This document shows, in pieces, positions 3,977 to 60,101 of a stretch of DNA of 64,000 bases. This DNA is from Coleofasciculus sp. D1-CHI-01 (GTDB lineage Bacteria; Cyanobacteriota; Cyanobacteriia; Cyanobacteriales; Coleofasciculaceae). Under the pieces are notes generated by a model. The model was not told the DNA's origin and searched no databases. It saw nothing but the letters and a program-made list of their open reading frames with translations. A program made the translations under genes and the position numbers. Location: the NCBI GenBank assembly GCA_040218875.1, contig JAVJQP010000092.1, one strand, 5' to 3'. How positions within the stretch are numbered: position 1 is the first letter of the stretch; every line of letters begins with the position of its first letter.

Positions 3977-4011
3977 TTATTTGTCATTCGTCATTCGTCA
4001 TTTGTGATAAT
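3977..4011. repeat. STRR-like tandem heptamer array (TCATT[CT]G family)
   Basis: ttatttg tcattcg tcattcg tcatttg tgataat, starting right after the adaptor stop codon. Confidence 0.85.
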
Positions 4012-4025
4012 TGAACGGTTAGGTC

Positions 4026-7701: not shown

Positions 7702-7736
7702 GTAGGTGGGGACAATTAAAGTTAACGGCTGAGATC

Positions 7737-7778
7737 GTCATTTGTCATTCGTCATTTGTCATTTGTCATTTGTTATAC
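7737..7778. repeat. STRR-like tandem heptamer array GTCATT[TC] x6
   Basis: gtcattt gtcattc gtcattt gtcattt gtcattt gttatac read directly. Confidence 0.9.
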
Positions 7779-8038
7779 TCGCTACCCTTGAGAAGCAAGC
7801 TACGCCCTTTGTAAGGGTTTGAGGCTTGTTTACATAACTCCATAAGGTTGAATTTATTTCCGCAAACCTGCTTAATAGACGCGCTATATAGCGATCCTCG
7901 TATAACCAAGTAAATTTTAGCTGACAATTTAAGACTTTGAACCCGTTTTAACGGGTTTTAGCTTTTAGCCAGAACTTTAGTTCTCGGCTATTTCTGTGTG
8001 ACTTAAGCAATTTATTTCAGGCATTGACTACATCTTGA

Positions 8039-12359: not shown

Positions 12360-14477
12360 ATGATCAACACCAACGAGTTGCAAACACGAGCCAAAATAAC
12401 TGAGCAGTTACCCGATATTCTCCAAGAATTGCATCGCTTATATCAGCCTCTGAAAGCGGGATGGGTTGCCGACTATATCCCAGAGTTGGCGCAAGCGAAT
12501 CCGGATTGGTTCGGGATTACGGTGGTGACGGTGGATGGTCAGGTTTATACTGTTGGTGATACGTCGATCCCGTTTACGATTCAGTCAATTTCAAAGCCGT
12601 TTGTCTATGGACTGGCTCTGGAAGATCATGGGTTGGACTATGTTTTGGAACGAATTGGGGTTGAACCAACCGGAGAAGCTTTTAATGAAATTATCGAACA
12701 TGAGGAGATCCAAGAGCGAAAGTATAATCCGATGGTGAATGCGGGCGCGATCGCAACCACCAGTTTGATTAAAGGGTTAGATTTATTTGAGCGGCAAACT
12801 CGCTTACTGCGTATGTTCCACCGCTATATCGGTCGAGAGGTGCAAGTGGATCAGGCGGTGTTTCAGTCCAAGAAGAAAACCGATAACCTGAATCGAGCGA
12901 TCGCCTATATCATGCAGAATTTTGGCTTGCTCGAAGGCAAGATTGATGACATTCTCGACCTTTACTTCCAGCAGTGCGCCTTAATGGTCAATTGCCAGGA
13001 CTTAGCGGTGATGGCGGGTACTCTGGCAAATGCTGGCATCAATCCAATTACAGGAGAACGCGCCCTGAAAGCTGATTATGTGAAAAACTTAATCAGCATC
13101 ATGTATACCTGCGGTCTGTATGACTTCTCCGGTCAATGGACGTACAAAGTCGGTCTACCTGCCAAAAGTGGTCTATCTGGGGCAATTATTGGTGTAGTTC
13201 CCAACCAAATGGGAATTGCTGTGTTTTCTCCTCCTCTAGGAGAACACAGTAAAAGCCTGCGAGGGGTCAAGGTGTTTGAAGCCCTATCACAGCACTTGCG
13301 ACTTCATGTCTTTGATAAAGTCGTTGACACGCCAGGTTATTTGCCAGAAACGATTAACCAAGACGGTAACAACAGTACTGAATGTCTGGACATTAACGAT
13401 GAGCAGTTAGCGATCTCCCAAAAAACACCGTCCTATCCCCAGTCGCGGGCAGTCGATGAAGGCACAACGAACACGCTACCGATGCGAGAACGCCCACCGA
13501 AAGTCACGCCAAAGCTCAACTCGGCAGCCATGATCGCTCAGTTGCATGTGAGTCCCACGTCCTTTATTACCGATTTGCGGGAATTACATCGCCAGTATCT
13601 TCCCCTCAGACAAGGGAAAATTTATGTGAGCGAACCGGATCTGGTGGAAATTAATCCCGATTGGTTTGGTATCTGTATTGTTACCGTCGATGGTCAAGTT
13701 TACACGGTTGGCGATTGGGAGCAACCGTTCTTAATTCAGTCCATCTCGAAAGTGTTTGCCTATGGAATGGCACTTTCGGATTGGGGACGAGATTATGTGG
13801 TCAGCCGAGTGGATGTAGAACCAACCGGAGATGCCTATAACTCGCTCATCAAGGTAGAAGAGAACTCCAAGCGCCCCTACAATCCCATGGTAAATACAGG
13901 TGCGATCGCGATTACCAATTTAATTGAGGGAAAAGGACCGGCTCATCGACTGAATCGTCTCCTGGAAATGTATCGTCGCTATGTGGGTCATCGTGTTTTT
14001 GTGGATACACCCAGCTTAGTGTCTGAACAAACCGCAGGCGATCGCAACTGGGCAATTGCGTACTTGTTGCGAAATTTTGGCATGATTTCTGGGGAAATCA
14101 AACAAACCCTGGATCTCTATCTCCAGCAGTGTTCGGTAATTATCAACTGCCACGATTTAGCGGTGATGGGAGCCACTCTTGCCAACAATGGGGTCAATCC
14201 GATGACGGGAGAACAGGCAATTCATTCCGATTATATTAAGGACTTACTCAGTGTTATGTTTACCTGTGGCATGTATGACTTTGCTGGGGAATGGGTGTAC
14301 AAAGTCGGGTTTCCAGCTAAGAGTGGCGTTGGGGGTGGCATTATTGGCGTTGTTCCCGGTGTCATGGGAATTGCCGTCTTTTCACCTCCCCTGGACAAGC
14401 GGGGGAACAGTATCCGGGGGATTAAAGTGTGTGAGGAACTATCGAGGCGCTTCGGCTTACACATCTTTCAATCATAA
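12360..14477 (+). CDS. glsA: tandem-duplicated glutaminase A (two complete glutaminase domains in one polypeptide)
   Basis: 705 aa. Two homologous halves each carry [19 protein letters not shown], the Ser-x-x-Lys motif (QSISKPF / QSISKVF), YNPMVN(A/T)GAIA and PAKSG(L/V)(S/G)G. They are joined by a linker of about 90 aa. Confidence 0.88.
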
Positions 14478-14490
14478 CGATTTGCCCCTC

Positions 14491-14607
14491 GGCTCCCCCG
14501 GCTCCCCCGGCTTCCCCGGCTCCCTCGGCTCCCCCGGCTCCCCCGGCTCCCTCGGCTCCCCCGGCTCCCCCAGCTCCCCCGGCTCCCTCGGCTCCCCCAG
14601 CTCCCCT
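14491..14607. repeat. tandem nonamer array GGCTCCCCC/GGCTCCCTC, 13 units
   Basis: Counted unit by unit from 14491. It fills the spacer between the convergent glsA and asnB genes, and the last unit overlaps the asnB stop codon. Confidence 0.95.
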
Positions 14608-16108
14608 AAACGGGTCGTTCTGACCAACGGGCAACGTTCGCCAGAATTGATTCCGGCTGCTCAAACACATCCATAAATATCTGGTGATAATAGCACTCTT
14701 CCGCAGAACGTAATGGCGCTTCTGGATGTTTCTGGCGATAGGTTTGGGCTTCCTCTTCACTCATTCCCTTTGCCAGCATTTGCGTTAATAAATCCACTGT
14801 GCCACTGCCTTCATCAAACTGCTCTTTCGTGCGCCAAACAATTTCAGAAGGTAGCAGATCCTCAAAGGCTTTTCGCAAAATCCATTTTTCGACTAATGGA
14901 TCACCCGCGAGTTTTAAATGGGCGGGAATTCTTTGACCGAGTTCAATCATTTTCAGATCCAAAAAGGGAACTCGTCCTTCCAGGGAGTGAGCCATGGTTA
15001 AACGGTCTACTCGCTGTAAGTTAATATTGTGCAGGCTAGTCACTGAGCGACGCAATTCGCGATGTAGTGTATCGTTATCGGGAATGCCTTTGTAGTAGGT
15101 GTAACCCGCAAACAGTTCATCAGCCCCCTCACCCGTGAGAATCACCTTGACATACTCGGCGGCGAGTCGTGAGGTAAAGTAACAGGGAATCGCACTGCGA
15201 ACTAAGTCTTGGTCAAAGGATTCCAAGGAATAAATAATTTCGGGTAGTTTTTCCTGAACTTCCTTGGGTGTAATTAGATATTCATGGTGAATCGTATCCA
15301 GATACTGGGAGACTAAACGGGCGGCTTTTATGTCTTTACTCCCTTCAATCCCCACGGAGAAGGTATGCAGTTTCTCGATATGCTGTCTGGCTACAGCCGT
15401 GGTGATACTGCTGTCTAAGCCACCGGAGAGGAAGCAACCGAGGGGAACATCACTCATTAGCCGCTTCACCACAGACGCTTCCACGGTTTCCCGCACTTCG
15501 CGAATTAAAGCGTCTGCATCTGCGTCTACCTCTGGCTGAATATCTGGCACTTGGTAGAACGTTGAAAACCCAGTTTCTGAGGAGAAAAAGGTGCCGGCTG
15601 GGAATTCCTGGACATTTTCGCACACATAAGCGATCGCTTTGAGTTCTGAGGCAAAAATAAACGCACCGTCTTTTTTACCGTAGTATAGAGGTTTAATGCC
15701 AATGGGATCACGGGCAGCAAAAAATTTATCCCCATCCGCGATCGCAAAAGCGTACATGCCATCGAGTTGCTCAACGGACTCGATTCCCTGATCTTCGTAC
15801 AGATGCAAAATTGCCTCTGTATCGCTTTTAGTCCGGAACTTAAATCGTTCCGCTAACTGGGGGAGTAACTGAGGAAAATTATAAATTTCGCCATTTCCGA
15901 CAATCACTCGCGCCTTGCGATCGCCGTATATCGGTTGGTTTCCCCCTTGCGGGTCCATAATACTCAACCGTCGATGTCCCAGAACACCTGCCTTAATCGG
16001 AGATACAAACATTCCTTCAGCGTCTGGACCTCGATGGATTAAAGTATCCATCATCTTTTTAACGCTGGTTTGATCAATTTGCCCCCATATTCCAGCAATA
16101 CCACACAT
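14606..16108 (-). CDS. asnB: asparagine synthase (glutamine-hydrolysing)
   Basis: The N-terminal MCGIAGIWG carries the Ntn catalytic Cys2. The synthetase domain has the SGGLDSS PP-loop motif. 500 aa. Confidence 0.9.
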   Translation of the reverse strand: MCGIAGIWGQIDQTSVKKMMDTLIHRGPDAEGMFVSPIKAGVLGHRRLSIMDPQGGNQPIYGDRKARVIVGNGEIYNFPQLLPQLAERFKFRTKSDTEAILHLYEDQGIESVEQLDGMYAFAIADGDKFFAARDPIGIKPLYYGKKDGAFIFASELKAIAYVCENVQEFPAGTFFSSETGFSTFYQVPDIQPEVDADADALIREVRETVEASVVKRLMSDVPLGCFLSGGLDSSITTAVARQHIEKLHTFSVGIEGSKDIKAARLVSQYLDTIHHEYLITPKEVQEKLPEIIYSLESFDQDLVRSAIPCYFTSRLAAEYVKVILTGEGADELFAGYTYYKGIPDNDTLHRELRRSVTSLHNINLQRVDRLTMAHSLEGRVPFLDLKMIELGQRIPAHLKLAGDPLVEKWILRKAFEDLLPSEIVWRTKEQFDEGSGTVDLLTQMLAKGMSEEEAQTYRQKHPEAPLRSAEECYYHQIFMDVFEQPESILANVARWSERPV

Positions 16109-22954: not shown

Positions 22955-23149
22955 AGTAATTCTTATCGGGTATTGCCAACCCGCGTTAGTTCTCCTATAG
23001 GGGCGACCCGCTTGCACCAATTAACAACGGTGTTTATCTAATTTACTCGGGTCGCCCTTAATTCAAGCCTTGATGGAAAAACTACGAGCTAAGGGTATTG
23101 ATCCAGAACAATTGTAAGTGTGATTGGGATTGATACGGAGTGGCATTCA

Positions 23150-23444
23150 AACTGAAGTTCCCCCAACCAAAAAATCAAAACTGCCTCACCGTGCGGCTTT
23201 CCGCGATTTTTTAGCCGCCGCACATGGGTACAATCGCTGAAACCTTGATGTAGCGTGGGTTTCAACCGATCTCTTGTCATATTGCCAAAATACCGCGTTG
23301 GCGGAGCCTGTTCCAAAGGAACGTATCGCGGTATTTTGGCAAGGGCTACATGGGTACAATTTTTGAGGGGGTTGAGCGCTAAAACCACCACGGAATAAGG
23401 CTTTAGCCTGGGTGCAGTACATCTGTATGGGGGGAACTTCAGTT
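23150..23444. mobile_element. 295-bp non-coding element bounded by perfect 15-bp terminal inverted repeats (MITE-like or structured RNA)
   Basis: aactgaagttccccc (23150-23164) is the exact reverse complement of gggggaacttcagtt (23430-23444). Inside is a perfect 16-bp hairpin, ttgccaaaataccgcg (23282-23297) / cgcggtattttggcaa (23327-23342), and a 13-nt direct repeat acatgggtacaat (23222-23234 and 23348-23360). Confidence 0.45.
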
Positions 23445-23492
23445 CAAAACAGATAGGGGAAATTAACTCAAGTTAGCCAATTCAACGGCTTA

Positions 23493-24731
23493 TCACTGAG
23501 GCAACGATCCTCGCAGCGCGTTGACTAAGCGATCAAACTCACGCTCAGCACGGCGAGGATGGACAAGATCTAATGTAGTCAGCATACTCAGCCGCGTGGG
23601 TAACTGATTTTGCTCGATTGGCGAGATTTTAACAGGTAGTAGGCGGTATGTACCTTCCTGAATACCCATTGTTTGCGCCAGGATGTTCTCAAACTCTGCC
23701 ATGTTATCTGTCAGATAGGCTTCCGAGAGTACGATAATAGTACGTTTGGACTGAGTAATGCCGCGCTCTATATTAACTACACGGGCTACGCCAGGGGTTT
23801 CAACATCGCCAGAAACAGCGAGGCGCAAATCGACTTTTTCTAATCGCGGTAGTAGTGTGTCCCACACCCAGGTAGTATCAGGCTCTTGATCTACATAACT
23901 GATGTAGGCATCATATCGAAAATTCTCTTCCACTATGGGGACAATACCTTTTTGACCACCTAAATAAAGAGCAATTGGGATATTCTCTTCTAGTTCTGCC
24001 TTGAAAATGGGGTGTTGGTTGGCGTTGTCAGCAGTAACTTTGGGTTGAAGATACTCAAACAGATCAAAAATCCGGATAAGACCGTCATTGCTTGGGATAC
24101 CGCCTTGTAAACCTGCTAGTAAGTGCTGGGTAAAAAGACTGTTAGCTGCACCAGGTAACACATAGGAAAATTCTGTGTCACGGGAAGATGCTAGAATTAC
24201 TCGTCCCTGTCCTTGCTGCAATACATCATAGTAGCTTTCTGGCAAGCCAGCTTTAATGACTAGACCAAATTTTTTGGGCTGACCAATACCACCTGAGTGA
24301 CAGCAATCAAAGATCACTACAATCTTTCTGGCGGGAATAGCCCTTAAAGCTTCAGTAAGCTGAATGCCAGAAATTGCTGTTTGAGCTATTGATGCCTCTG
24401 ATGTTGGGTCTGTCTCAACAGGTAACAGGTACTCACCAGTATGGGAACCACACTCAATTCGTCCACCGTGGCTAGAAATGTACAAGAATACTGTGGAGTC
24501 CTGATTACTAGTTTGAGTAAGGTGAGCCAGTGCTTGGCTAATAGCTGCTTTAGTAGCCTGCTCATCTAGCAGTAATTGTACGTTGTCTGGAGAGTACCCG
24601 CAGTGTAGGGGGTCAATAAGCAAGTTGTAGATATCCCGCGCATCCTTTAAGACAGTTGATGGGAGTTGTGTAAGGTTTTGGTAGTTGGCAATACCGACCA
24701 CTAGTGCGTATGCATTTTCCATTCCCGACAT
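23493..24731 (-). CDS. caspase-like (peptidase C14) - TIR domain fusion protein
   Basis: 412 aa. The caspase/metacaspase dyad contexts FLYISSHGG (His) and VIFDCCHSGG (Cys) are present. The C-terminal TIR-like module reads YDAYISY ... RTIIVLSEAYLTDNMAEFEN ... YRLLPVKI. An aggag SD lies 8 nt before the ATG. Confidence 0.75.
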   Translation of the reverse strand: MSGMENAYALVVGIANYQNLTQLPSTVLKDARDIYNLLIDPLHCGYSPDNVQLLLDEQATKAAISQALAHLTQTSNQDSTVFLYISSHGGRIECGSHTGEYLLPVETDPTSEASIAQTAISGIQLTEALRAIPARKIVVIFDCCHSGGIGQPKKFGLVIKAGLPESYYDVLQQGQGRVILASSRDTEFSYVLPGAANSLFTQHLLAGLQGGIPSNDGLIRIFDLFEYLQPKVTADNANQHPIFKAELEENIPIALYLGGQKGIVPIVEENFRYDAYISYVDQEPDTTWVWDTLLPRLEKVDLRLAVSGDVETPGVARVVNIERGITQSKRTIIVLSEAYLTDNMAEFENILAQTMGIQEGTYRLLPVKISPIEQNQLPTRLSMLTTLDLVHPRRAEREFDRLVNALRGSLPQ

Positions 24732-24859
24732 GAAGGGTCTCCTATTTAGCTAGACATGACCGATGGGACTGACAATAATAGATTTATAGTTAATTCATCC
24801 GCTCAATACCTAAATTGAGCTGAGGATTAGATACAGATACACCATTGCCATTGAACAGC
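24732..24859. promoter_or_regulatory. divergent promoter region shared by the two TIR genes
   Basis: A 128-bp AT-rich spacer between divergent starts. No specific boxes were assigned. Confidence 0.35.
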
Positions 24860-26206
24860 ATGATCGGTCAGAATGATTACCAGTATGATCTGTTCATTTC
24901 CTACACTACTACTGACCGCACTTGGGTTGAAAAACACCTATTACCTAAGCTGGGCTTGCCATCTAAGCGAGTTATTACTACTCAAGACTTCCGTCCTGGG
25001 GCAACGAAGGTCAATGAGTTCGAGCGTGCTGTCACCAAAAGTCACTACACTGTGTTGGTTTTCACCCCCAATTACAAAAAGGACAAGTGGTTTAAGTTAA
25101 GCGAGAATTTGGTCTCGTACTTGAGCGTAGCCGAGCAACACGATCGCCTGATTCCACTACTTTTAAAACCCTGTGATCTACCTTTACGTATCGATTACCG
25201 CGTCCACCTTGACTGTACTGACTCGAGTAATTGGGAGAGCGAACTTAGTCGCCTCCGTGCTTTGCTAGCTGAACAAGACCCGAATTTTGGAACTCAAACT
25301 CAAAGCTCGCAAACCGCGCATCTGTCGCCTATCCCCACCCTCTCAACCTTAAAGTTTGAAGTAGTAACAGTAGATGCCATGGGGAAAGTGGCTAACCGTT
25401 GCTCTAAAAAGGCACAGTACTTCATAGAAAGTTTAGGCGGTGTAGTTGAGCTAGAAATGGTTTCCATCCCAGGTGGTAAATTTACGATGGGATCACCTAA
25501 AGCAGAGGAAGCATCCCAGGAAGATGAACGTCCTCAACATCTAGTCACTGTCAAACCTTTCTTTATGGGTAAGTATCCTATTACTCAGGCGCAGTGGAGA
25601 GCGATCGCGTTCCTTGCGAAAATCAAACGCGAACTCAACCCTGACCCATCCTGTTTTAAGGGGGATAACTTACCTGTTGAACGAGTGTCCTGGTATCATG
25701 CACTAGAGTTTTGTCAGCGACTGTCGAGAGAAACGGGAAGAGAATACCGATTACCAAGTGAAGCTGAATGGGAATATGCCTGCCGCGCCAGAACATCAAC
25801 CCCATTCCATTTTGGTAAAACAGTTACAACTGATCTAGCCAACTATTGTGGACAAAACCGAGAAATTGAGGGAATTTTGGGCAAAGGAACTTATGGTAAT
25901 GAACCTTGTGGAGTTTATCACCAACGAACTACCGAGGTTGCTTGTTTTCCAGCTAACAGCTTCGGACTCTGTGACATGCATGGTAATGTCTGGGAGTGGT
26001 GTGCTGACTATGACCACCAGAACTATCAAAGCGCACCATTGGATGGTAATGCGTGGATAACTGATGGCAATTCAGAATATAGAAAATTGCGGGGTGGTTC
26101 CTGGGATTACTCTCCTCATTTCTGTCGTTGTGCATCTCGCTTTTCTGAAAATCCGAATATCCTCAACAAGGAATTTGGTTTTCGAGTTATTTTTTCTTCT
26201 GGGTAA
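24860..26206 (+). CDS. TIR domain - formylglycine-generating-enzyme (FGE/SUMF1-type) domain fusion protein
   Basis: The ATG at 24860 is preferred over the TTG at 24845. The N-terminal TIR-like module reads YDLFISYTTTD ... YTVLVFTPNYKKDKWFKLSEN ... RLIPLLLKPCDLP. The C-terminal FGE-sulfatase-type motifs are MVSIPGGKFTMGS, VERVSWYHALEFC, YRLPSEAEWEYACRA, HGNVWEWC, LRGGSW and FGFRV. Confidence 0.75.
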   Translation: MIGQNDYQYDLFISYTTTDRTWVEKHLLPKLGLPSKRVITTQDFRPGATKVNEFERAVTKSHYTVLVFTPNYKKDKWFKLSENLVSYLSVAEQHDRLIPLLLKPCDLPLRIDYRVHLDCTDSSNWESELSRLRALLAEQDPNFGTQTQSSQTAHLSPIPTLSTLKFEVVTVDAMGKVANRCSKKAQYFIESLGGVVELEMVSIPGGKFTMGSPKAEEASQEDERPQHLVTVKPFFMGKYPITQAQWRAIAFLAKIKRELNPDPSCFKGDNLPVERVSWYHALEFCQRLSRETGREYRLPSEAEWEYACRARTSTPFHFGKTVTTDLANYCGQNREIEGILGKGTYGNEPCGVYHQRTTEVACFPANSFGLCDMHGNVWEWCADYDHQNYQSAPLDGNAWITDGNSEYRKLRGGSWDYSPHFCRCASRFSENPNILNKEFGFRVIFSSG

Positions 26207-26216
26207 ATTTTTCTGA

Positions 26217-29200
26217 TTATTGAGTTCTGAGACTATAAATTCTTTCTTTTACATCTGCGATAGAGGATAAGTCTGAAATTTTTATGCTCGTCTCTCGGCG
26301 AATTTGAACCTTGGGATTTATTAGTGACCTCCTAATACACTGGCTTCTGTAAGGATGAGAAAGCCAATTCCAACTTCCGAAAACAGCAAATTTTGTGTCG
26401 CAAATCAAGATCTTTTCATTGGTTCCTTTACTTTCTATATGTATTGCTTCCCCTAATCGAATTAAATCTGAACCTGGATAATGATCAAATAATTCTTTCA
26501 GGTTTTTCTCGGCGTAAACATCATTATTATCATGTTCATTTTCCTCGCTAGTTTTGTGACCATAAACTAGTGTCACCTTCACTCCTCTTTCCAAAGCTGA
26601 AACAACATCATTAACAAAATATTTCGGTTCTTCTCCTCTAATCCAAGGCGTAACAATCACCAGTTCCTGTTCAGCTTGCTCAATTGCTTCTTTCAAAATA
26701 TTTAAATGATCACAATTATAAATCAGCACAGATCCCGGCTGTTGCTTAGGAATTTCAACCTCAGATTTATACTCTAAAATATTTCCCTGGTCTCGAATAT
26801 GTTCAACGAGTTGACGAGTATAATTTCCAGCTTTCTCTAGTCTGTAAAGATTACCCACTAGAATAAACAGTTCTTTAGCTCTCGATACGGCAACATTCAG
26901 AAGGTTGGGACGCCGATTAATCCAAGCAACGTTATCTTGCGGTCGGCACACCTTTGTTGAGAGGATAATTACCTTTTTCTCAGACCCTTGAAAAGCATGA
27001 ATCGTGCCAATAGATTTTTTATCTAAATCAGGCAAATTTCGACGCAAACCGTCCCTTAACGCATCAGCTTGAGCGCGAAACGCTGAAATCACACCAATAT
27101 CTTTTAGTGAGTAGCCTTGATTATATAAATGCTGGATTAAGTCACCTATTGCAGTAACTTCTTCCTGATTAACATTACCTTTAATATTTCCCTCAACATG
27201 ATAAGCAATCAAATTTGATTCTAGCAGTGAAGTAACGGGTGCTGTTTTAACTTCTAATCCATAGTTAGCAATTTTATTGCAATATTGAATAATGCTAGGT
27301 TGACAGCGGTAATGCTCAATCAAACAAATTCCTTTGCCCTTATCGTTGTTTTCTCCTCTTGCTCCTGCGGCGCGATGATAAGAAGTTGCACTATATTCTT
27401 CTGGACTATAACAATGGTAATCAATTTTAGTTAATCCTTTGTCAAGAAACGCTGTGTGAAAGTAGTTATCACGTCTCTGCTCACTCAAAGAGATTACAGG
27501 CTCTATTTGGAAAGGATCTCCAACAATAATAGCTTTGCGCGATCGCACTAACAGAGGAAAGGTCTGATGCAGTGGAATCATTCCGGCTTCATCTATAATT
27601 GTGCGGTCAACACATTCCTCTACCCACGGCAACATATTTCGTATTGAAAGTAATGTACTAGTAATCACTGGAAAAATTAAGCTCGAATATTTAATATTAT
27701 CATCTAAATTTTCTTCCATTTTATATTTATCTTTCCAATTTCCAGAAAGCATATTTACATACAGTTCTAAAGTAGATTTCACACGTTCTTTATAAAGGAG
27801 AGCTTGCTGATCAAGAAACAGCAGCGATAGTTTAAATAACTCTTGGTGCTTGTTATGAAAATTTTCATGAAATGAAGCGTAAAAATCTTCCAGTTCAGTT
27901 TCTAACCTCCGTTCCAAATCACTCAGTTCTGAGCCGATCTCATATCTTTCTCGCTCTCGACTGATTAGAATTTCAGAAATTTCTTGTAATTTTTCTTGTA
28001 CGCTTTTTAGCTCATCTGCTTTATCTAGTCGTTCTCTAACCAACTGCGCCTGTCTTACCAAATCACTGCGATTTTTGGGGGCTTCCACAGGAAAGGAGGT
28101 ACTAAATGTGCTTTGGATTGCGGAATGACAAGCTGACCTCGTATTAGCCAAAATATTTTGTTCTGTTTTGCCAATCAGCCACCGCCATAAACGAATCCAC
28201 CAAGGCAAATTTCCTGCGGGTAACTGTAACTCAGCCGTATCAAAGTGCAACTTAATTTGTCGATAAGCTTCTGTGGGAAATTGTTCATATTCTGCCAAGT
28301 ATTCAACTCGTATCTGAAAATTAATTTTAGCCTTTTTATCTCCATCTAATTGTTCTATAATTGCTTGGTATTTTCGTTTGAAACGAGGCATATTTTGTTC
28401 GGCGAATGATCTTTGGCAACGTAATTCTAAATGAGCCAATTCTTGCTGCCTCAGTTCATCTTTAATAGATTTTATTTGCTGTTTTATCTTAGTACTATGA
28501 TTTGCATTGAAACTAGTTTTTTGCAAGTAATCGATTGCAGCGTTTAACTTTTCGATCGCTCCTCCCGCAGATTTAATGTTAGGTGTGCTTCCTCCTTTAA
28601 GATAGAAAATACGGTTGTTCAAAGATTCATTCAGTTTCTCAATTACGTTTTCAACTGCTTTATTATTAGTGCTGCTAACAACGGTCAAATTATTAATATC
28701 CTCATCATTCTCAACCAGGCTAATTGCACGTTGTACTACCTGTTGAGCAATCAGATGAAGGATTAGAGTAGTTTTCCCAGAGCCGGGAGGACCCTGGACT
28801 GCCGTTACAGGTTCTGTTTGGGCATGTTTTATTGCTGTTAATTGCGAGTTAGTTGGTGCATGGGTTGGGAAAGCTCCCATATAGGTAATCTCATCTTGAT
28901 GATCTTGTGGTGTACCGAATAGATATTCGCGAGCTGGATGTCCTTGTTTCAACCAATATTTTGATCGTGACTTAATATCTTTTAAATCTTTCCGGAGCTT
29001 GCCAGTAAATCTGCCTCCGGTAAACTCAAACAAATATGGCTGTCCCTTAATTTGTTTACCAGAACGACGAGGTATAACAACCCGCTCCATCCACTCCTGA
29101 TAACTATCAAATGTTAGCTCAAACGTTGTTTCGAGAAAGCGTCGCAGTCCATCTTGGGTGATTAATTGCTCTTGCTGTTCATCATCCAGTTTTAGGAATG

Positions 29201-29585
29201 TGGCTAAGTTATATCCTGCTTCCGTGAGTGTCAGGTTATCTAGATTCCATCCATCTTCTCGGTACTCTCCTTTAAGTATGGATGTAATATCCAAGCTAAA
29301 CAGAGGACAAAAATAAGATGTTTTGTTTTCTACATCCAAAATTTGGGGAAACGACAAGACCCAAACAGCTTCCTGTTGATCTTTTGGTCTCTTGGCAACC
29401 TTTTGTTGCAGTTCTGAAAAGATATCTGTCTCAATTAATACATGATCACCTACTAGCTTTATACCCCGCTGTTTTACGGTATCCTGATTGGCTACTTTGA
29501 TTCTGGCGCTACTGTAATCGTCCAAAGCGATGTAGTCAAACCAGGCGTTGAGAATCGCGTCTACCTTGCTTACTTCGTTCAACAT
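26217..29585 (-). CDS. SF1 (Upf1/DNA2-like, COG1112-type) helicase with coiled-coil insertion and C-terminal PLD-like domain; Mokosh type II-like
   Basis: 1122 aa. Walker A GPPGSGKTT, motif II-like IIDEAGM, and late helicase motifs (GTIHAFQGSEKKVIILS, LNVAVSRAK). The C-terminal single HKD-type motif reads N-E-K-ILIC-D-TKFAVF-G-S-W-N (nt 26367-26420). The gene is AT-richer than the flanking genes. Confidence 0.7.
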   Translation of the reverse strand: MLNEVSKVDAILNAWFDYIALDDYSSARIKVANQDTVKQRGIKLVGDHVLIETDIFSELQQKVAKRPKDQQEAVWVLSFPQILDVENKTSYFCPLFSLDITSILKGEYREDGWNLDNLTLTEAGYNLATFLKLDDEQQEQLITQDGLRRFLETTFELTFDSYQEWMERVVIPRRSGKQIKGQPYLFEFTGGRFTGKLRKDLKDIKSRSKYWLKQGHPAREYLFGTPQDHQDEITYMGAFPTHAPTNSQLTAIKHAQTEPVTAVQGPPGSGKTTLILHLIAQQVVQRAISLVENDEDINNLTVVSSTNNKAVENVIEKLNESLNNRIFYLKGGSTPNIKSAGGAIEKLNAAIDYLQKTSFNANHSTKIKQQIKSIKDELRQQELAHLELRCQRSFAEQNMPRFKRKYQAIIEQLDGDKKAKINFQIRVEYLAEYEQFPTEAYRQIKLHFDTAELQLPAGNLPWWIRLWRWLIGKTEQNILANTRSACHSAIQSTFSTSFPVEAPKNRSDLVRQAQLVRERLDKADELKSVQEKLQEISEILISRERERYEIGSELSDLERRLETELEDFYASFHENFHNKHQELFKLSLLFLDQQALLYKERVKSTLELYVNMLSGNWKDKYKMEENLDDNIKYSSLIFPVITSTLLSIRNMLPWVEECVDRTIIDEAGMIPLHQTFPLLVRSRKAIIVGDPFQIEPVISLSEQRRDNYFHTAFLDKGLTKIDYHCYSPEEYSATSYHRAAGARGENNDKGKGICLIEHYRCQPSIIQYCNKIANYGLEVKTAPVTSLLESNLIAYHVEGNIKGNVNQEEVTAIGDLIQHLYNQGYSLKDIGVISAFRAQADALRDGLRRNLPDLDKKSIGTIHAFQGSEKKVIILSTKVCRPQDNVAWINRRPNLLNVAVSRAKELFILVGNLYRLEKAGNYTRQLVEHIRDQGNILEYKSEVEIPKQQPGSVLIYNCDHLNILKEAIEQAEQELVIVTPWIRGEEPKYFVNDVVSALERGVKVTLVYGHKTSEENEHDNNDVYAEKNLKELFDHYPGSDLIRLGEAIHIESKGTNEKILICDTKFAVFGSWNWLSHPYRSQCIRRSLINPKVQIRRETSIKISDLSSIADVKERIYSLRTQ

Positions 29586-29746
29586 CCCCTTCAGGCTACC
29601 TTGTATACCTTATTGTCCTTTCTAGCATTTTCTGGTTCCTGATTTCAATAGCCCAAGACTGGAAGGGAGTATCTCATCAAATGCTATCTAGCTTTTGACG
29701 GGTGATTTATAAAGTAAATCTTAAGATGCTATAAGTTTCGTTATTA

Positions 29747-29808
29747 GTGGGTTAGGGCGGACATGTTATTAAAGGTTATTTTCCTGATCAAGTACCCGCC
29801 TAACCCAC
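29747..29808. repeat. imperfect long-loop palindrome gtgggttagggcgg ... ccgcctaacccac
   Basis: About 13-bp arms (one bulge) around a ~35-nt loop, similar in style to 4026-4083. Confidence 0.5.
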
Positions 29809-30077
29809 GATGGCGGTGTGACACAGCTAAAATGGTGGAATAGATTTTACAGTTAAATCGGGCGCAAGGCTTTGCGCCCCTACGGTTTCTGAATGCAAGC
29901 GTTATCCATCAAAGTAAGCGTACCATGCCACTACTGGCTCGGAACCCTGGAGTCCTAGAGCTTTCTACCGGGTTCCTAGCAAAAGGGGGATAGTTAACCT
30001 AGATTGAGTATCAGGGAGCGGCATGTTAGATAAAATACCATTACCACAATCCCTAATGTAACATTCTCGAACTCAAC

Positions 30078-30401
30078 ATGACATCCTTACCACAGAAGCG
30101 CCAAGCAAGACGGGGACGGATATTCCCAGAATATACCATCCCGCCAGAAGAATTAGCCAGACGCAGAGCGAAACGCATTGAACTGGGCAAGCGTTGCCGA
30201 GTTATTTTTGAACGACTTCGCCCGGAACTGATTGAACAATACTACAATTGGTTCATTGCCATAGAACCCGATAGCGGCGACTATTTAATTGACCCAAAAC
30301 TAGACGGAGTGCTTCAAAAAGGACAAGAACGTTATGTCAATACTGATGTTAAGCTAACAATCTTTCGACTGAATGAAACCGGAACTTGCGGCACGATATG
30401 A
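30078..30401 (+). CDS. small hypothetical protein, upstream partner of a retropepsin-like protease
   Basis: 107 aa with a basic N-terminus. Its stop overlaps the next start in an ATGA arrangement (30398-30401). Confidence 0.5.
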   Translation: MTSLPQKRQARRGRIFPEYTIPPEELARRRAKRIELGKRCRVIFERLRPELIEQYYNWFIAIEPDSGDYLIDPKLDGVLQKGQERYVNTDVKLTIFRLNETGTCGTI

Positions 30402-30763
30402 TTGTAGGCAGGTTTGGTGAAAATGGGGAGTTGTTCTTTGAGATTGAACTGATAGCCGCAAATGGCGAACGTTTTGCCGTTGAAGCACTTCTAGATACGG
30501 GTTTTACCACAGGTTGGCTAGCACTTAACGCTCAGGATATCGAGGCGTTACAGTGGTCTGCGATCGCCTATGAAATCGACATGACAACGGCGCGAGGTAA
30601 TGAGCTTTTTGACCTCTATGCAGGAACGGTAATGATCGATAACCAAGAGTTTACCATTCCCGTTCACGTTGGAGAAGGACTCCCTGATATTTTAATCGGT
30701 TCTCAGTGGTTAGATAGTATCGAACTAATCGTAAAGAAACGAAAGGGTATTTTGACATTATAA
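30398..30763 (+). CDS. retropepsin-like (clan AA) aspartic protease
   Basis: The ATG at 30398 is translationally coupled to the upstream gene. It has the catalytic LLDTGFT (D-T-G) motif and the ILIGSQWL motif. About 121 aa, the single-lobe size typical of homodimeric retropepsin-like proteins. Confidence 0.65.
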   Translation: MIVGRFGENGELFFEIELIAANGERFAVEALLDTGFTTGWLALNAQDIEALQWSAIAYEIDMTTARGNELFDLYAGTVMIDNQEFTIPVHVGEGLPDILIGSQWLDSIELIVKKRKGILTL

Positions 30764-30851
30764 GTTCTGGAAAGGGAGTAAAATCAATTGTATTTTGTTG
30801 CACGGGGGGAACCAGAAAATACAGCGCTTTTGACGTTTATGGAATACAAAT

Positions 30852-30886
30852 ATGACAAATGACAAATGACAAATAACAATCAAACC
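30852..30886. repeat. STRR-like heptamer array ATGACAA x4-5 (reverse complement of TTGTCAT, a GTCATTT-type unit)
   Basis: atgacaa atgacaa atgacaa atgacaa ataacaa. It overlaps the stop of the REC-GGDEF gene. Confidence 0.9.
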
Positions 30887-31878
30887 TCAACCAAATTTCC
30901 CACCACGCGATCGCGCCCTTCTACCTTAGCTTTATACAGCGCTTGATCTGCCTCCGCAATTAGCCGCTCTGGAGTCGTTTTTGGCGGCGGAATTACTCCA
31001 GCTACACCACAACTTAAGGTGACAAACTTACTCACCCCAGACCCCTCATGCACAATCGCCCGCGACTTCAGTTTCGAGCGAATCGATTCTGCCACCTGCA
31101 TCGCACCTCTGAGGGAGGTATTCGGTAAAATCACCACAAATTCCTCCCCCCCATACCGAGCTACCACATCCGCTGGACGCTTTGCCGCTTTACGCAAAAT
31201 ATCAGCAACTTGTTTAAGACACTCATCTCCCGCTTGATGTCCATAGGTATCGTTATATGCCTTAAAAAAATCAATATCACACAAAATTAACGACAGAGGT
31301 GATTGTTCCCGCGCCAATCGTTTCCACTCCTGCTGCAACGCCTGATCAAACGCTCGACGATTGGCAATCTGAGTCAACCCATCCAAATCAACCAACCGTT
31401 GCAACTCCTGATTCATTTCCTCTAACTTCGCCTTCAGCACCCGTTCTTGCTCAATTTTGCAGTGTAACTCCGCCATCACCCAATGGGTATGCAGTAACCG
31501 ACGCACCCGTTGCCGCAGCACCGCCCAATGAATTGGTTTCGTGATATAGTCCGTAGCGCCCGCCTCGAACGCTCGGTCTACCGATTCCTGATTATTAAGT
31601 CCTGTAATCATCAAAACAGGTGGGCATTTCTGACCAAATCGTTCTTGTAACTGAGCGCAACAGGTAAACCCATCCATCACAGGCATCACCCCATCCAACA
31701 AAATAATATCGGGTAACTGTTCGGTGCAAAACGCCAGACATTGATGCCCATCCCCCACTTCTGACACCTGATACCCCTCCTGTTCCATCGCCCGACGCAG
31801 CACTAGGCGTAGGGTCTTTTCATCATCCACAATCAAAATCAGGGGAGGGTCACGGTGAAAGTCAGACTGATTCATCAT
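30880..31878 (-). CDS. response regulator receiver - GGDEF diguanylate cyclase
   Basis: REC motifs ([23 protein letters not shown]). The GGDEF domain has RYGGEEFVV. Its start overlaps the stop of the upstream kinase gene by 4 nt. Confidence 0.9.
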
Positions 31879-40560: not shown

Positions 40561-40770
40561 GTTTGTAGTTTGTCGTTTGTAGTAAGGGATGCGAGCCTAT
40601 CAGCGCGTCAACGTAGGAACTAACAGTTGTATAATTTAACTGTGCAAGGTTAGAGTTTGTAGTAAGGGCTTTAGCCTACTCAGCGCGTCAACGTAGGAAC
40701 TAACCTCAACGTTATATTGGCGCTAAAGCGCAACTACAAGCGCAACTACAAGCGCAACTACAAGCGCAAG
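40561..40770. repeat. REP/REPIN-like repeat block flanking the RAYT gene (left copy)
   Basis: The block starts with GTTTGTA heptamers, followed by two ~45-bp units (gtttgtagtaaggg.t...agcct..cagcgcgtcaacgtaggaactaac). It ends with an inverted arm, ggcgctaaagcgcaactacaag, plus a caactacaagcg tandem. It is about 90% identical to the block at 41367-41576. Confidence 0.85.
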
Positions 40771-40779
40771 GACAAACTT

Positions 40780-41379
40780 ATGTACAACTATCGCTACCTT
40801 ACTCCCATCCAAAAAGCTGAAATCCTTGAATACCGTAGACTTCAAGGCTTTCCTCCTCATTCTCCGCCCCATCCTTTTCAAAATAAACCTTTCTACCTGC
40901 TAACGGCGGCTTGCTACGAACACAAACCCCGTATCAATAGTATCTCTCGTCGTCAGGAACTTTTAGACCAATTATTTAAGAATTTCCTAGACGCAGGTAT
41001 TGAAATCCTCGCCTGGGTCATTTTAACTAATCATTATCATGTATTAGTCAATACCGTTGAGTTTAAGCGGGTGAGTGGTATTTTTCGCCTGATTCATGGT
41101 AGACTGGCTCGTCAGTGGAATCTAGAAGATAAGTTAAGGGGAAAAGTTTGGTATTCTTACTGCGATCGCGCGATTCGTTCGCAACGTCATTATTATGCTA
41201 CTTTAAACTATATCCACTACAATCCGGTGAAACATAATTATGTTGAATCTCCCTATGATTGGGACACAAGTAGTGTTCACTGGTATTTGCAGGAAAGGGG
41301 GCGAGAGTGGTTGAGACAGTGTTGGGTTGGATTTCCTGTTCAAGATTACGGGAAAGAGTGGGATAAGTTTAGTTTGTAG
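40780..41379 (+). CDS. REP-associated tyrosine transposase (RAYT, IS200/IS605-like Y1 HUH enzyme)
   Basis: HUH motif NHYHVLV and catalytic Tyr motif YIHYNPVKH. The preferred start is the ATG at 40780, because the 40717 TTG extension only translates the repeat as NYKR x3. The stop TAG lies inside the right repeat block. Confidence 0.85.
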   Translation: MYNYRYLTPIQKAEILEYRRLQGFPPHSPPHPFQNKPFYLLTAACYEHKPRINSISRRQELLDQLFKNFLDAGIEILAWVILTNHYHVLVNTVEFKRVSGIFRLIHGRLARQWNLEDKLRGKVWYSYCDRAIRSQRHYYATLNYIHYNPVKHNYVESPYDWDTSSVHWYLQERGREWLRQCWVGFPVQDYGKEWDKFSL

Positions 41380-41576
41380 TTTGTAGTTTGTAGTAAGGGA
41401 TGCGAGCCTACTCAGCGCTTCAATGTAGGATCTAACAGTTGTATGATTTAACTGTGCAAGGTTAGAGTTTGTAGTAAGGGATGCGAGCCTATCAGTACTT
41501 CAATGTAGGATCTAACCTCAACGTTATACCGGCGCTAAAGCGCAACTACAAGCGCAACTACAAGCGAAATGTAAAC
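41367..41576. repeat. REP/REPIN-like repeat block flanking the RAYT gene (right copy, direct orientation)
   Basis: Same internal organisation as 40561-40770, with scattered substitutions (cagcgcttcaatgtaggatctaac versus cagcgcgtcaacgtaggaactaac). Confidence 0.85.
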
Positions 41577-41927
41577 TTTATGTTAAAAAAGTAACGAAAA
41601 CTACACGTTATTGGCAATTTAATCAAGTCCCGTGAAATAATCGTAGTAAGGACAAATCGCACCGACTTTAATCTTTTCTAGATCAAGGAGAGATTAAACT
41701 GTTGTTTTGTTTATTGATAAGCGCGATCGCGCCTATATATAAGTTTTGCTTAATTCTAACCCAAAATTACTCAACTGGCGCTGGAGTCTGGACATTAGAG
41801 ACTTGAATCGCCAAGCAAGCTGTGCTGGTGATTAAGTTTCCTGGTTCAATCCCAATCCCAGGGGGCGATTTGTCTGGCGATGAAATTCTCTCTAATTTTA
41901 GTTCAATCCCTTATGAGGAACAATGGA

Positions 41928-45581: not shown

Positions 45582-46164
45582 TGTTCAATTCCTTTTCAGT
45601 AGTTAAATCAACAAGACGACTTAGAGAGATACGAGCTACTCCATCATCATCATAGGTAATGTAGTGATGTACAATGAGACGCACTGGGTTAATCAGTTGA
45701 TGGCGATCGCCTAATTCTATCTCACTAAATGGTACGGCGTGTCTGAATCCTTGGGAACCATGCCTAAGTAAGGTAAAGTTATCTCGCTTTTCCCCATGAG
45801 TTCCCCAGAGAATCTGTCTTTCTGGGATTTTGTCTACCTCTGAATTATCTTGGACTAGACGCGATCGCCAAGTTTCACCCGCCCGCCAAAGTAATACTTC
45901 CCCATGTTTACCAAAGATACGGCATTGTTGAAGGGTGAGGACTCGTAGAGATGGAAAATCTACGTTAAACTCAGGCTGGTGAAATATCTGTTCCGCTGTG
46001 GTTAATTTACCTGAATCAAAGCGACCCCAAATTACACCGTCTTCAGCATGAGCTAGCAGATAATTTAGGTTCCAGGTTATCGCTTGTTTTTCTAACCAAT
46101 ATCTAAGCGTTTCATCATCTACAATCCCATCAATAGGAAGCTTTTGGCATAACACTTTGTTCAT
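45541..46164 (-). CDS. csx19: Csx19-like (TIGR03984-like) type III-D accessory protein
   Basis: 207 aa. The call rests on position between two RAMP genes and the LLAHAEDGVIWGR segment, recalled as typical of this cyanobacterial family. Its start overlaps the upstream stop by 4 nt, and its 3' end overlaps the next start by 41 nt. Confidence 0.45.
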   Translation of the reverse strand: MNKVLCQKLPIDGIVDDETLRYWLEKQAITWNLNYLLAHAEDGVIWGRFDSGKLTTAEQIFHQPEFNVDFPSLRVLTLQQCRIFGKHGEVLLWRAGETWRSRLVQDNSEVDKIPERQILWGTHGEKRDNFTLLRHGSQGFRHAVPFSEIELGDRHQLINPVRLIVHHYITYDDDGVARISLSRLVDLTTEKELNNASQTSQKSTGRS

Positions 46165-49198: not shown

Positions 49199-49206
49199 CC
49201 AACTTT

Positions 49207-49869: not shown

Positions 49870-49873
49870 CTGA

Positions 49874-52848: not shown

Positions 52849-53054
52849 AGTGGCTAACCTGGGTATGACGTTGCTGCTGGGGTGAGATAGGCGATCGCTC
52901 TTCCTTAATCTAATCCAACTTATCTCCATGGGATTGAGAGGGGGACGAGTCGAGGGCGCGATCGCCTCTGTACCAAAAATTATGCCATCCATTCGGAAAC
53001 ACCCCCTTCCGATACTTGATAGGCTATAAGCCACACTCAACAAAACAAAAACTG
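52849..53054. promoter_or_regulatory. divergent promoter region between the Cas10 operon and the WYL gene
   Basis: A 206-bp spacer between divergent starts, and a natural operator location for a WYL-type regulator. No boxes were assigned. Confidence 0.35.
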
Positions 53055-59989: not shown

Positions 59990-60101
59990 GTCATTCGTCA
60001 TTTGTCATTCGTCATTCGTCATTCGTCATTCGTTTCCTCCATCTTCCCCATCTTCCCCATCTTCCCCATCTCCTGATAACTGATAACTGATAACTGATAA
60101 C
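59990..60101. repeat. composite of three different tandem micro-arrays: GTCATT[CT] x6, ATCTTCCCC x3, TGATAAC x4
   Basis: Units counted directly: 59990-60031, 60041-60067 and 60074-60101. The composite starts 1 nt after the hydrolase stop codon. Confidence 0.95.

Follow-up and report, generated by a model that had tools for sequence, protein, structure and literature searches.

The 64,000-nt stretch of Coleofasciculus sp. D1-CHI-01 DNA analyzed here as a whole (the window) contains a gene which raises the question of how a Mokosh-type defense protein could work when the histidine of its nuclease motif is missing. In Mokosh type II proteins (MkoC, e.g., the E. coli YjhR-type) a Upf1/COG1112-like SF1 helicase is followed, in one polypeptide, by a single C-terminal PLD-fold domain, and the window protein has the same organization. 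The ATPase and the PLD active site are the known mechanistic requirements of Mokosh, because the defense depends on the helicase ATP-binding motifs and is abolished by mutation of the PLD active site (10.1101/2022.05.11.491447). The window protein and its closest relatives, which form one cyanobacterial clade, have asparagine or another residue in place of the catalytic histidine. Here, we describe the domains of this protein, the distribution of the histidine loss, and the genes that accompany the helicase.

Domain organization of the helicase protein

The open reading frame is located on the minus strand and encodes 1122 amino acids from an ATG start, as originally predicted. Its features are as follows.

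26217..29585, minus strand: whole gene of the MkoC-like helicase with a predicted pseudo-PLD domain (1122 aa, ATG start)
28857..29585, minus strand: N-terminal alpha/beta domain, aa 1–243 (domain model pLDDT 82)
26766..28856, minus strand: Upf1-like SF1B helicase core, aa 244–940 (Pfam AAA_11 and AAA_12; Foldseek)
28767..28793, minus strand: Walker A motif GPPGSGKTT, aa 265–273 (G265, P267, G268, G270, and K271 invariant)
27675..28580, minus strand: helical stalk/coiled-coil insertion in RecA1, aa 336–637 (DSSP on the AlphaFold2 model)
26220..26738, minus strand: C-terminal PLD-fold domain, predicted pseudo-nuclease, aa 950–1122 (Pfam PLDc_2, profile, Foldseek)
26367..26420, minus strand: degenerate HKD motif N1056-E-K1058-ILIC-D1063-TKFAVF-G1070-S-W-N1073 (translation and alignments)

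The helicase core was matched by Pfam AAA_11 at residues 246–413 and in a second stretch, and by AAA_12 at residues 802–912, while Foldseek comparison of the helicase retrieved SETX/Sen1, IGHMBP2, Aquarius, and Upf1 with E values between 1e-18 and 1e-13. The motifs quoted in the original prediction were all found, which are GPPGSGKTT (265–273), IIDEAGM (663–669), FQGSEKKVIILS (865–876), and VAVSRAK (898–904). The ATP-binding motifs are present (Walker A, DEAG, GDPxQ, FQGSE, and VAVSRAK); Walker A, DEAG, and motifs III, V, and VI are intact, with no variation at their key residues among 81 sequences. The long coiled-coil-like insertion proposed to interrupt the core was also seen in the AlphaFold2 model of the whole protein (pLDDT 90.2, pTM 0.80), in which residues 361–637 are predicted to be almost wholly helical, with helices, among others, at 361–429 (69 residues) and 506–562 (57 residues). 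This stalk is the least conserved part of the protein, with a mean identity of 0.41.

The N-terminal region, which had been left without an assignment, has no Pfam match in residues 1–243, and the domain gave neither a PDB sequence match nor a significant fold match (best PDB E 0.63, best BFVD E 0.02). It is common to the cyanobacterial relatives, and it is a new domain specific to the clade. The proposed Mokosh type II architecture was confirmed by the match of the PADLOC MkoC profile to residues 243–1084 (E 9e-105), which makes the protein a clear homologue of MkoC, and 23 of 23 tested clade members matched this profile as well. The motif GS[WF]NWLS is also common to MkoC and the clade proteins. 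On the other hand, the N-terminal 243 amino acids of the window protein are outside the MkoC profile, whose match begins at residue 243, which is a difference from Mokosh type II.

Two other assignments of this protein were considered. CoCoNuT type III-C systems, which are cyanobacterial and combine a McrBC-linked Upf1-like CnuH with a 2xPLD effector, likewise contain a Upf1-like helicase, coiled-coil elements, and PLD domains, whereas the window protein has only one PLD domain, which forms part of the helicase polypeptide and is devoid of the histidine. This assignment was rejected because there are no McrBC genes in the window, as neither McrB nor McrC was detected in Pfam scans of its ORFs of at least 180 aa. 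The second one, a housekeeping helicase of RNA metabolism unrelated to defense, could be suggested by the fact that Upf1-like helicases perform RNA surveillance in eukaryotes and by the presence of petH, ftsH, and signaling genes in the window flanks (Pfam). This explanation is very improbable, because the flanks vary, with the gene at a different genomic position in every genome examined, and the neighbors across the clade loci include toxin-antitoxin, NERD, Uma2, transposase, caspase, TIR, and EAD genes; hence, the family is not a housekeeping one conserved in synteny. Additionally, the best model match is MkoC, and the gene is AT-richer than its surroundings, as had been noted, with a GC content of 0.382 and a low GC3 of 0.306, compared to 0.40–0.42 for the two TIR genes and 0.44–0.51 for the flanking genes.

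Loss of the HKD histidine across one clade

The prediction of one C-terminal PLD-like domain was confirmed by the match of PLDc_2 to residues 964–1074 (E 1.2e-7). The domain profile retrieved NucT (6ehi, E 7e-8), Nuc (1byr), Zucchini (4ggj), and poxvirus F13, and the Foldseek comparison with NucT gave a TMt of 0.67. The fold and the motif spacing are the same as in the single-HKD nucleases NucT, Nuc, and Zucchini (PLD6). In the PLD/HKD nuclease superfamily, a homodimer builds a single active site out of two HKD motifs. The residues C958, H960, H1077, and C1083 of this domain may form a Cys/His metal site.

The reading of the HKD motif that had been put forward was reproduced by translation of nt 26367–26420, whose reverse complement consists of AAT GAA AAG (N-E-K), ATC TTG ATT TGC (ILIC), GAC (D), ACA AAA TTT GCT GTT TTC (TKFAVF), and GGA AGT TGG AAT (G-S-W-N). 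Hence, K1058 is kept in the window protein, while the catalytic histidine is replaced by N1056. BLASTP against a C-terminal fragment of yjhR, an MkoC-type pseudogene of E. coli K-12, aligned N1056 with the histidine of HSKIVIEDEELLCVGSFN (E 7e-20), and in a domain-profile alignment with 57 relatives N1056 was again opposite to histidine, so that no histidine of the window protein was placed at the catalytic position.

The same loss was observed throughout the clade. None of the 63 aligned members has histidine at this position, which is occupied by asparagine in 59, aspartate in three, and glutamate in one, while in the protein P0123 it is serine. The lysine position contains arginine in 42 of these 63 members and lysine in 19, and asparagine and glutamine are also seen. 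On the other hand, H-x-K is kept in all 18 aligned outgroup relatives and in E. coli YjhR. Therefore, the clade differs from Mokosh type II in that the H-x-K(x4)D active site is absent from its PLD domain. In a neighbor-joining tree built from helicase columns only, every protein without the histidine was located within one clade, which answers the question whether N-x-K defines a clade: N-x-K/R marks a single monophyletic cyanobacterial one. The remaining part of the PLD-fold domain is under constraint and has a confidently predicted fold. D1063, G1070, W1074, L1075, and S1076 are invariant in the clade, S1071 and N1073 are mostly kept, and the mean identity of the domain is 0.53, which is higher than that of the stalk. 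The sister clade is devoid of the entire PLD domain.

The loss of the catalytic histidine, together with the absence of the whole PLD domain from the sister clade, could be taken to mean that the gene is a decaying relic of Mokosh that is turning into a pseudogene. This is the least probable of all explanations considered, because the 1122 codons form an intact reading frame, the same motif occurs in more than 100 full-length homologues, and the conservation is strong throughout a protein with a confident predicted fold.

Because the nucleophilic histidine is replaced by asparagine and the lysine is usually arginine in the clade, we infer that the nuclease activity of its PLD-fold domain was lost. 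The natural sequence of the clade is equivalent to that of the engineered inactive H124N variant of H. pylori NucT, which showed no nuclease activity on either ssDNA or RNA, but bound ssDNA with a KD of ~2 nM (PMC5714352). The earlier suggestion that the PLD domain could have a non-catalytic role in binding or dimerization is in agreement with this experiment. The HKD histidine is also naturally replaced in the PLD folds of poxvirus F13/OPG057 and FAM83 DUF1669, both of which were retrieved by the domain profile, even though these unrelated proteins differ from the window protein in having no helicase fusion. The role of F13 is in membrane wrapping, while FAM83 DUF1669 serves in kinase scaffolding. 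F13 has an asparagine at the position of N1056, within a natural N-x-K-x4-D motif, which presumably is still required for its function, and therefore the asparagine variant need not be inert.

This last point is also consistent with another explanation, in which the domain would still be a nuclease, using another residue, e.g., H960 or H1077, or a water molecule activated by N1056, the protein would be an ordinary single-gene Mokosh II, and the FGS gene next to it would belong to a separate system. The conservation of the domain, in which D1063, G1070, S1071, and N1073 are mostly kept, and the near invariance of H960 and H1077 in the clade could be explained in this way. However, H960 is equally invariant in the relatives that have the catalytic histidine and H1077 is present in 12 of 18 of them, which argues that neither residue is its replacement. 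Moreover, the H124N variant of NucT is inactive (PMC5714352), both the histidine position (N, D, E; S in P0123) and the lysine position (R, K, N, Q) drift, and only this clade shows the adjacency of an FGS gene (27 of 28 loci). Hence, retained nuclease activity appears unlikely.

A conserved FGS partner and matching caspase adaptors

Two genes next to the helicase gene are considered below.

24845..26206, plus strand: TIR-FGS gene, conserved partner (TIR aa 14–137; FGE-sulfatase/C-type-lectin-fold aa 196–452)
23493..24731, minus strand: caspase-TIR gene, divergent from TIR-FGS (Peptidase_C14 aa 8–248, TIR aa 275–403)

The TIR-FGS gene (Pfam FGE-sulfatase E 6e-57, TIR_2 E 3e-15) ends 10 bp before the stop codon of the helicase gene, so that the two genes form a tail-to-tail pair, in agreement with the original prediction. 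There, this TIR-FGE neighbor was regarded as mere context, but the comparison of loci showed that its partnership with the helicase is conserved in this clade alone. Of the 28 clade loci that could be assessed, 27 have an FGS gene on the opposite strand at a distance of 0–173 bp, versus none of 18 loci of the closest relatives (0/14 in the PLD-less sister clade and 0/4 among the nearest histidine-bearing relatives), and there was no FGS neighbor at ~40 loci of distant helicases. The sole clade locus without an FGS gene, L038, includes only 165 bp upstream of the helicase gene, and a divergent partner was perhaps cut off there. The pairwise distance matrices of the helicase and the FGS protein are also correlated (r 0.81–0.84). 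When metagenome contigs were scanned with a basal-clade alignment for the start of the FGS linkage, the matches listed were distant gut-metagenome helicases only. The clade-wide FGS pairing of a Mokosh-type helicase is a new observation. While canonical Mokosh type II consists of a single gene, the helicase of this clade has an FGS partner gene and often also a caspase gene, and the conservation of the FGS partner suggests a multi-gene rather than a single-gene system.

Because the helicase and FGS genes converge and do not form an operon, their co-expression is not guaranteed. The strictly convergent layout, with a gap of 6–24 bp, might allow antisense control via overlapping 3′ ends. A scan of positions 23000–30900 for promoters and terminators gave counts at or below the shuffled expectation. 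At one locus (L010), the only one with VMAP/MoxR nearby, an EAD10-VMAP/MoxR ternary system adjoins, and the FGS protein could belong to that system instead.

The FGS partner carries an additional module, which differs among the loci. It is TIR in the window, and EAD10, EAD1, caspase, or CHAT elsewhere; EAD10, EAD1, or caspase precedes the FGS domain, while CHAT follows it in one locus. The caspase-TIR protein of the window has the His/Cys dyad in the SSHGG and DCCHSGG motifs, and it was recognized by both Pfam and NCBIfam, the latter as “caspase, EACC1-associated type”. A caspase gene is located at most 1.3 kb away in ~10 other clade loci, while it is missing at about half of the clade loci. 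Where the FGS partner carries EAD10, the caspase has an EAD10-like tail, in which the motif GK[FY]ITNINEAxxxHIGD resembles the EAD10 motif GKYxVNIAxGxxIHIGD, a similarity that was judged by eye and is unscored. In the window, TIR stands in for both EAD10 and the caspase tail, as one TIR is on the FGS protein and the other on the caspase.

These features are similar to those of the EAD/FGS conflict systems (Kaur, Burroughs, Iyer, Aravind 2020, 2021), which have the same layout of an effector or EAD joined to FGS, caspase and TIR effectors, paired adaptors on neighboring genes, and a strong bias toward filamentous cyanobacteria. They differ in the NTPase, since an SF1 helicase with a fused, predicted pseudo-PLD domain is present instead of a STAND, MoxR-vWA, or GTPase core, and in that DGR diversification of FGS was not found in the window. 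The FGS domain is well conserved across the loci, including its C-terminus, while one internal loop of ~25 residues is hypervariable. The possibility that TIR-FGS is the target of a DGR in the window was rejected, since the FGS C-terminus is conserved and no direct repeat involving 24845–26206, as would be expected of a template/variable pair, is present within these 64 kb; a DGR could be located elsewhere in the genome.

In published models, FGS senses invaders inside the cell and is coupled both to NTPases and to effectors recruited by EADs (PMC7159879, PMC8195603). This could suggest that the signal flows in the reverse direction, with the lectin fold of FGS sensing the invader, and the helicase with its pseudo-PLD domain replacing the STAND or MoxR-vWA NTPase as an NTP-dependent regulator or threshold, or acting as a downstream, nucleic-acid-directed effector. 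The [effector/EAD]-FGS layout of the partner and the hypervariable loop are consistent with such a role. On the other hand, an SF1 helicase or PLD partner of FGS is not mentioned in these studies (PMC7159879, PMC8195603), FGS is otherwise highly conserved and no DGR repeat is present in the window, and Mokosh helicases are thought to recognize phage RNA (10.1101/2022.05.11.491447), which makes the reversed flow doubtful.

A proposed division of sensing and killing

We propose, with a probability of about 0.6, that this locus encodes a derivative of Mokosh type II that turned into a multi-gene system, in which a sensor helicase with a pseudo-nuclease domain would signal via recruited TIR and caspase effectors. 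Because Mokosh defense needs the PLD active site, the effector of this clade would have to come from elsewhere. In the proposed mechanism the Upf1-like helicase, with its intact ATPase, the N-terminal domain of the clade, and the helical stalk, would engage invader RNA or ssDNA. The PLD-fold domain would no longer cleave, but could be retained for binding of phosphate or nucleic acid, for dimerization, or for protein docking. The killing would be supplied by the neighboring FGS protein of the C-type-lectin fold. Its N-terminal module would either act directly as the effector, as with TIR in the window and caspase at other loci, or serve as an adaptor (EAD10, EAD1). Such an adaptor would recruit the adjacent caspase in a like-with-like manner, by TIR–TIR contacts in the window, and by EAD10 with the EAD10-like tail elsewhere. 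This would be expected to deplete NAD+ and/or to cause proteolysis, leading to abortive infection in a filamentous cyanobacterium. We infer that the proteins physically interact, that the signal passes from the helicase to the effectors, and that the system has a role in defense.

A more far-reaching form of this proposal is tentative. The RNA-sensing helicase could be an apoptosis-like hub, in which the pseudo-PLD domain docks or holds the ligand for a lectin-fold adaptor that assembles TIR and caspase homotypically, and it could represent a bacterial counterpart of the animal RIG-I-like pathways, with their succession of helicase sensor, adaptor, and death effector, derived from a MOV10L1/Zucchini-type ancestor similar to the piRNA pathway.

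The clade provides a natural experiment, in which the domain persisted without its nuclease site, and a partner bearing cell-death modules arose at the same point of the tree. Automated defense annotation would label such loci as plain Mokosh II, so that the presumably inactive site would be overlooked, as would the partner genes. The clade also adds a documented case of the probable change from a nuclease to a pseudo-enzyme inside an immune protein. It links the studies of Mokosh and piRNA-like helicase-nuclease proteins with those of the EAD/FGS/caspase conflict systems of multicellular bacteria, which have so far been separate. By uncoupling the sensing part of Mokosh from the effector part, this clade would offer a handle on what the helicase recognizes.

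The helicase gene and its surroundings

The open reading frame at 26217-29585 on the minus strand was confirmed as real, and from its ATG start it encodes a protein of 1122 aa containing all the motifs quoted in the original prediction, with N-E-K-ILIC-D-TKFAVF-G-S-W-N encoded at nt 26367-26420. As had been proposed, its stop codon lies 10 bp from the end of the TIR-FGE gene, here called TIR-FGS (24845-26206, plus strand; FGS, FGE-sulfatase fold), and the gene has a higher AT content than those around it (GC 0.382, GC3 0.306), compared to GC3 values of 0.40-0.42 for the two TIR genes and 0.44-0.51 for the flanking genes. The presence among the latter of ftsH and of petH with a CpcD domain (Pfam) indicates that the window is cyanobacterial. 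The suggested identity as a Mokosh type II protein agrees with the PADLOC model of MkoC, the single-gene protein of that system, which matched aa 243-1084 (E 9e-105) as well as 23 of 23 tested members of the cyanobacterial clade lacking the His of the HKD motif (the non-His clade).

Domains of the helicase-PLD protein
aa 1-243: N-terminal domain, alpha/beta (AlphaFold2 model)
aa 246-413 and a second stretch: AAA_11 (Pfam)
RecA1 domain, split by a nearly all-helical insertion (about aa 336-637) that includes one helix of 69 and one of 57 residues (AlphaFold2 model)
RecA2 domain, after RecA1 and the insertion (AlphaFold2 model)
aa 802-912: AAA_12 (Pfam)
aa 953-1121: C-terminal domain, alpha/beta (AlphaFold2 model)
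aa 964-1074: PLDc_2 (Pfam, E 1.2e-7)

The AlphaFold2 model, obtained with an alignment of 81 sequences, was confident (mean pLDDT 90.2, pTM 0.80). A Foldseek search against the PDB matched SETX/Sen1, IGHMBP2, Aquarius, Upf1, ZNFX1 and Dna2 (E 1e-18 to 1e-11), which are Upf1-like SF1B RNA/DNA helicases. The C-terminal domain was matched by Foldseek to H. pylori NucT (TMt 0.67), while its sequence profile matched NucT (E 7e-8), poxvirus F13/OPG057, Nuc, Zucchini/PLD6 and FAM83A. The N-terminal domain, modelled by itself with a pLDDT of 82, gave nothing significant in fold searches against the PDB and BFVD, and did not align to the MkoC profile.

Other features of the window
3974-4013, 7735-7788 and 59981-60048: intergenic tandem heptanucleotides TCATTTG/TCATTCG, which we take to resemble cyanobacterial STRR-type repeats
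14468-14624: twelve tandem 9-nt units, CCCCGGCTC-like, spanning the 3' ends of a glutaminase ORF (12360-14477) and an asparagine-synthase ORF (14606-16108, minus)
30078-30763, plus: upstream of the helicase gene, a small ORF of 107 aa overlapped by another of 125 aa, the latter with a weak retroviral-type aspartyl protease match (E 0.003, below the Pfam cutoff)
40600-41583: two copies of a ~160-bp element, 812 bp apart and 90-94% identical, overlapping ORF 40717-41379 and each ending in tandem 12-mers AAGCGCAACTAC (repeat families D3-D5)
43404-53127, minus: effector locus of a type III CRISPR-Cas system, some 14 kb away from the helicase module, where a Cas10/Cmr2-palm protein (49874-51526) and a Card1-like CARF endonuclease (51523-53127) are encoded along with several RAMP proteins

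Asparagine at the position of the catalytic histidine

The claim that Asn replaces the catalytic His held in comparisons at several depths. In BLASTP, N1056 pairs with the His of HSKIVIEDEELLCVGSFN in the C-terminal fragment of E. coli K-12 yjhR (E 7e-20), an MkoC-type pseudogene. A word-indexed search returned 157 homologues (~1115-1130 aa, identity down to 43%), almost all with the motif TN[EQA][KR]ILxCDxKFAVxGSWNWLSH, and the 120 listed were all cyanobacterial or from metagenomic contigs. When 1.84 billion representatives were searched exhaustively with a profile, 32,580 relatives emerged; among the best 150, the PLD domain was reached in 57, where all distant relatives had T-H-x-K, and N, D or S occurred only in the closest group. 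The profile alignment placed N1056 at the catalytic position, with no His there in any clade member.

Residues in the 81-sequence alignment (63 non-His clade, 18 outgroup)
Position 1056 (His): clade N 59, D 3, E 1; outgroup H 18
Position 1058 (Lys): clade R 42, K 19, N 1, Q 1; outgroup K 18
D1063, G1070, W1074, L1075, S1076: invariant in both

A neighbour-joining tree built from helicase columns only grouped all non-His proteins, so the motif marks one clade, and remodelling of the catalytic dyad was a single event at the clade base. The sister group consists of two His-bearing proteins (P0124, P0125) and a ~960-aa cyanobacterial clade, which has lost the PLD domain entirely. In the clade alignment the PLD domain had a mean identity of 0.53, between the values of the stalk (0.41) and the helicase core (0.66-0.74); judged from these sequences, the PLD-fold domain is kept under constraint despite the remodelling of its dyad.

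In Mokosh, PLD active-site mutations abolish defence (Millman et al., 10.1101/2022.05.11.491447). The NucT crystal entry matched by the C-terminal profile is an engineered H124N mutant, which folds and purifies as the wild type does, shows no activity towards ssDNA or RNA even when present in 10-fold excess, and still binds ssDNA with a KD of ~2 nM (PMC5714352). The natural N1056 sequence thus matches a form proven to be binding-competent and cleavage-dead, and by this analogy the helicase-PLD protein has probably lost nuclease activity. The positive charge kept at the Lys position (K or R) would fit phosphate binding rather than catalysis. Poxvirus F13 has a natural N-x-K-x4-D motif, which is still needed for its function, so Asn variants are not necessarily inert.

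Residues C958, H960, H1077 and C1083 (~26337-26714, minus) vary little or not at all within the non-His clade, and His-bearing relatives mostly share them; they may form a structural metal site, reminiscent of the Zucchini zinc site. Continued catalysis through another residue is unlikely. His-bearing relatives have H960 just as invariantly and often have H1077 as well (12/18), so neither has the look of a substitute; position 1056 itself varies between N, D, E and S; and NucT H124N is dead.

Linkage to an FGS gene

The pairing of the helicase with an FGS gene is an addition to the original prediction. An FGS gene directly adjoined the helicase gene in 7/7 looked-up contexts. GTDB representative genomes were then surveyed by calling ORFs and searching them with profiles seeded from the window proteins; the basal clade members P0114, P0117 and P0119-P0123 lie outside these gene-context data. 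At 27 of 28 assessable distinct non-His loci the opposite strand carries an FGS gene at a distance of 0-173 bp, the sole exception (L038) having just 165 bp of upstream sequence. In the usual layout the two genes converge and either lie 6-24 bp apart or overlap slightly, and three loci (L006, L008, L021) are divergent. No FGS neighbour was found in the PLD-less sister clade (0/14 loci), at the four nearest His-bearing relatives (L089-L092, 0/4) or at distant helicases (0 of ~40 loci). The helicase and FGS distance matrices correlated with r of 0.81-0.84 (21 loci), as strongly as those of the helicase core and the PLD domain of the same protein (r 0.76). The 10-bp gap at 26207-26216, like the gaps of 6-24 bp at most homologous loci, has no room for a terminator, so the helicase and FGS transcripts probably have overlapping 3' ends. 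Neither a housekeeping role nor a decaying relic agrees with the genomic location, which differs from genome to genome, with the defence-type neighbours, or with the more than 100 intact, conserved homologues.

The FGS proteins share the junction motif F[ED]FEVVTVDxxGxE, while the attached module differs.

Modules attached to FGS
EAD10: most loci
EAD1: L016
Fused caspase: L017, L022, L026
CHAT, C-terminal: L021
Unassigned sequence: L011, L027
TIR: window

In about ten loci a caspase gene (~321 aa) lies at most 1.3 kb away, and its C-terminal tail, GK[FY]ITNINEAxxxHIGDVYNK, resembles by eye the second half of EAD10 on the FGS partner, GKYxVNIAxGxxIHIGDRxY. In the window, TIR takes the place of both the EAD10 module and the caspase tail, as TIR-FGS stands beside a caspase-TIR gene (23493-24731, minus) with an intact His/Cys dyad. 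Under the 'EAD principle' (PMC7159879, PMC8195603), such a matched adaptor swap is expected between components that interact; in these papers FGS is combined with cores of the STAND, MoxR-vWA or GTPase type, and there is no mention of an SF1 helicase or PLD partner.

Further arrangements were seen at other loci. In a Nodularia MAG (L030, 5962-14788), a PLD-less helicase paralogue has a caspase-TIR gene 148 bp downstream in the same orientation, whose C-terminal region is by eye closely like that of the window, and next come TIR-AAA_35 and an AAA_35-NACHT STAND, so the caspase-TIR module also travels with other NTPases. At L010 (1-4106), the caspase, helicase-PLD and EAD10-FGS genes have EAD10-VMAP, a MoxR-type AAA and a large gene as neighbours; these look like a VMAP ternary system sharing the EAD10 adaptor with the FGS partner. 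In three genomes (L001, L004 and L005) a NERD-domain gene (~195-219 aa) lies upstream of the helicase gene, and none was found near the module in the window.

Comparison with known systems and a proposed mechanism

The helicase-PLD protein is like Mokosh type II in architecture and profile score, but it lacks the PLD active site, a defining feature, and a second feature, single-gene autonomy, probably fails as well. Its partner and effectors are like those of EAD/FGS conflict systems, while the NTPase is not. CoCoNuT was rejected, as Pfam scans of window ORFs of at least 180 aa showed no McrBC genes. Searches of the open-access literature turned up neither the His-less clade nor a pairing of such a helicase with FGS.

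The homology, the absence of the His throughout the clade, the conservation and the gene linkage were observed directly. As regards physical contacts, signalling direction and a role in defence, we infer that the helicase, which has both a novel N-terminal domain and a stalk, would engage invader nucleic acid, and that the pseudo-PLD domain would bind instead of cleaving, or dimerise, or dock a partner. The main rival explanation uses the same parts, with the FGS protein as the sensor and the helicase as an NTP-dependent regulator. In our preferred reading, in which the helicase acts first, the FGS protein would link the helicase event to the TIR and caspase effectors via homotypic adaptors, and the end point would be abortive infection.
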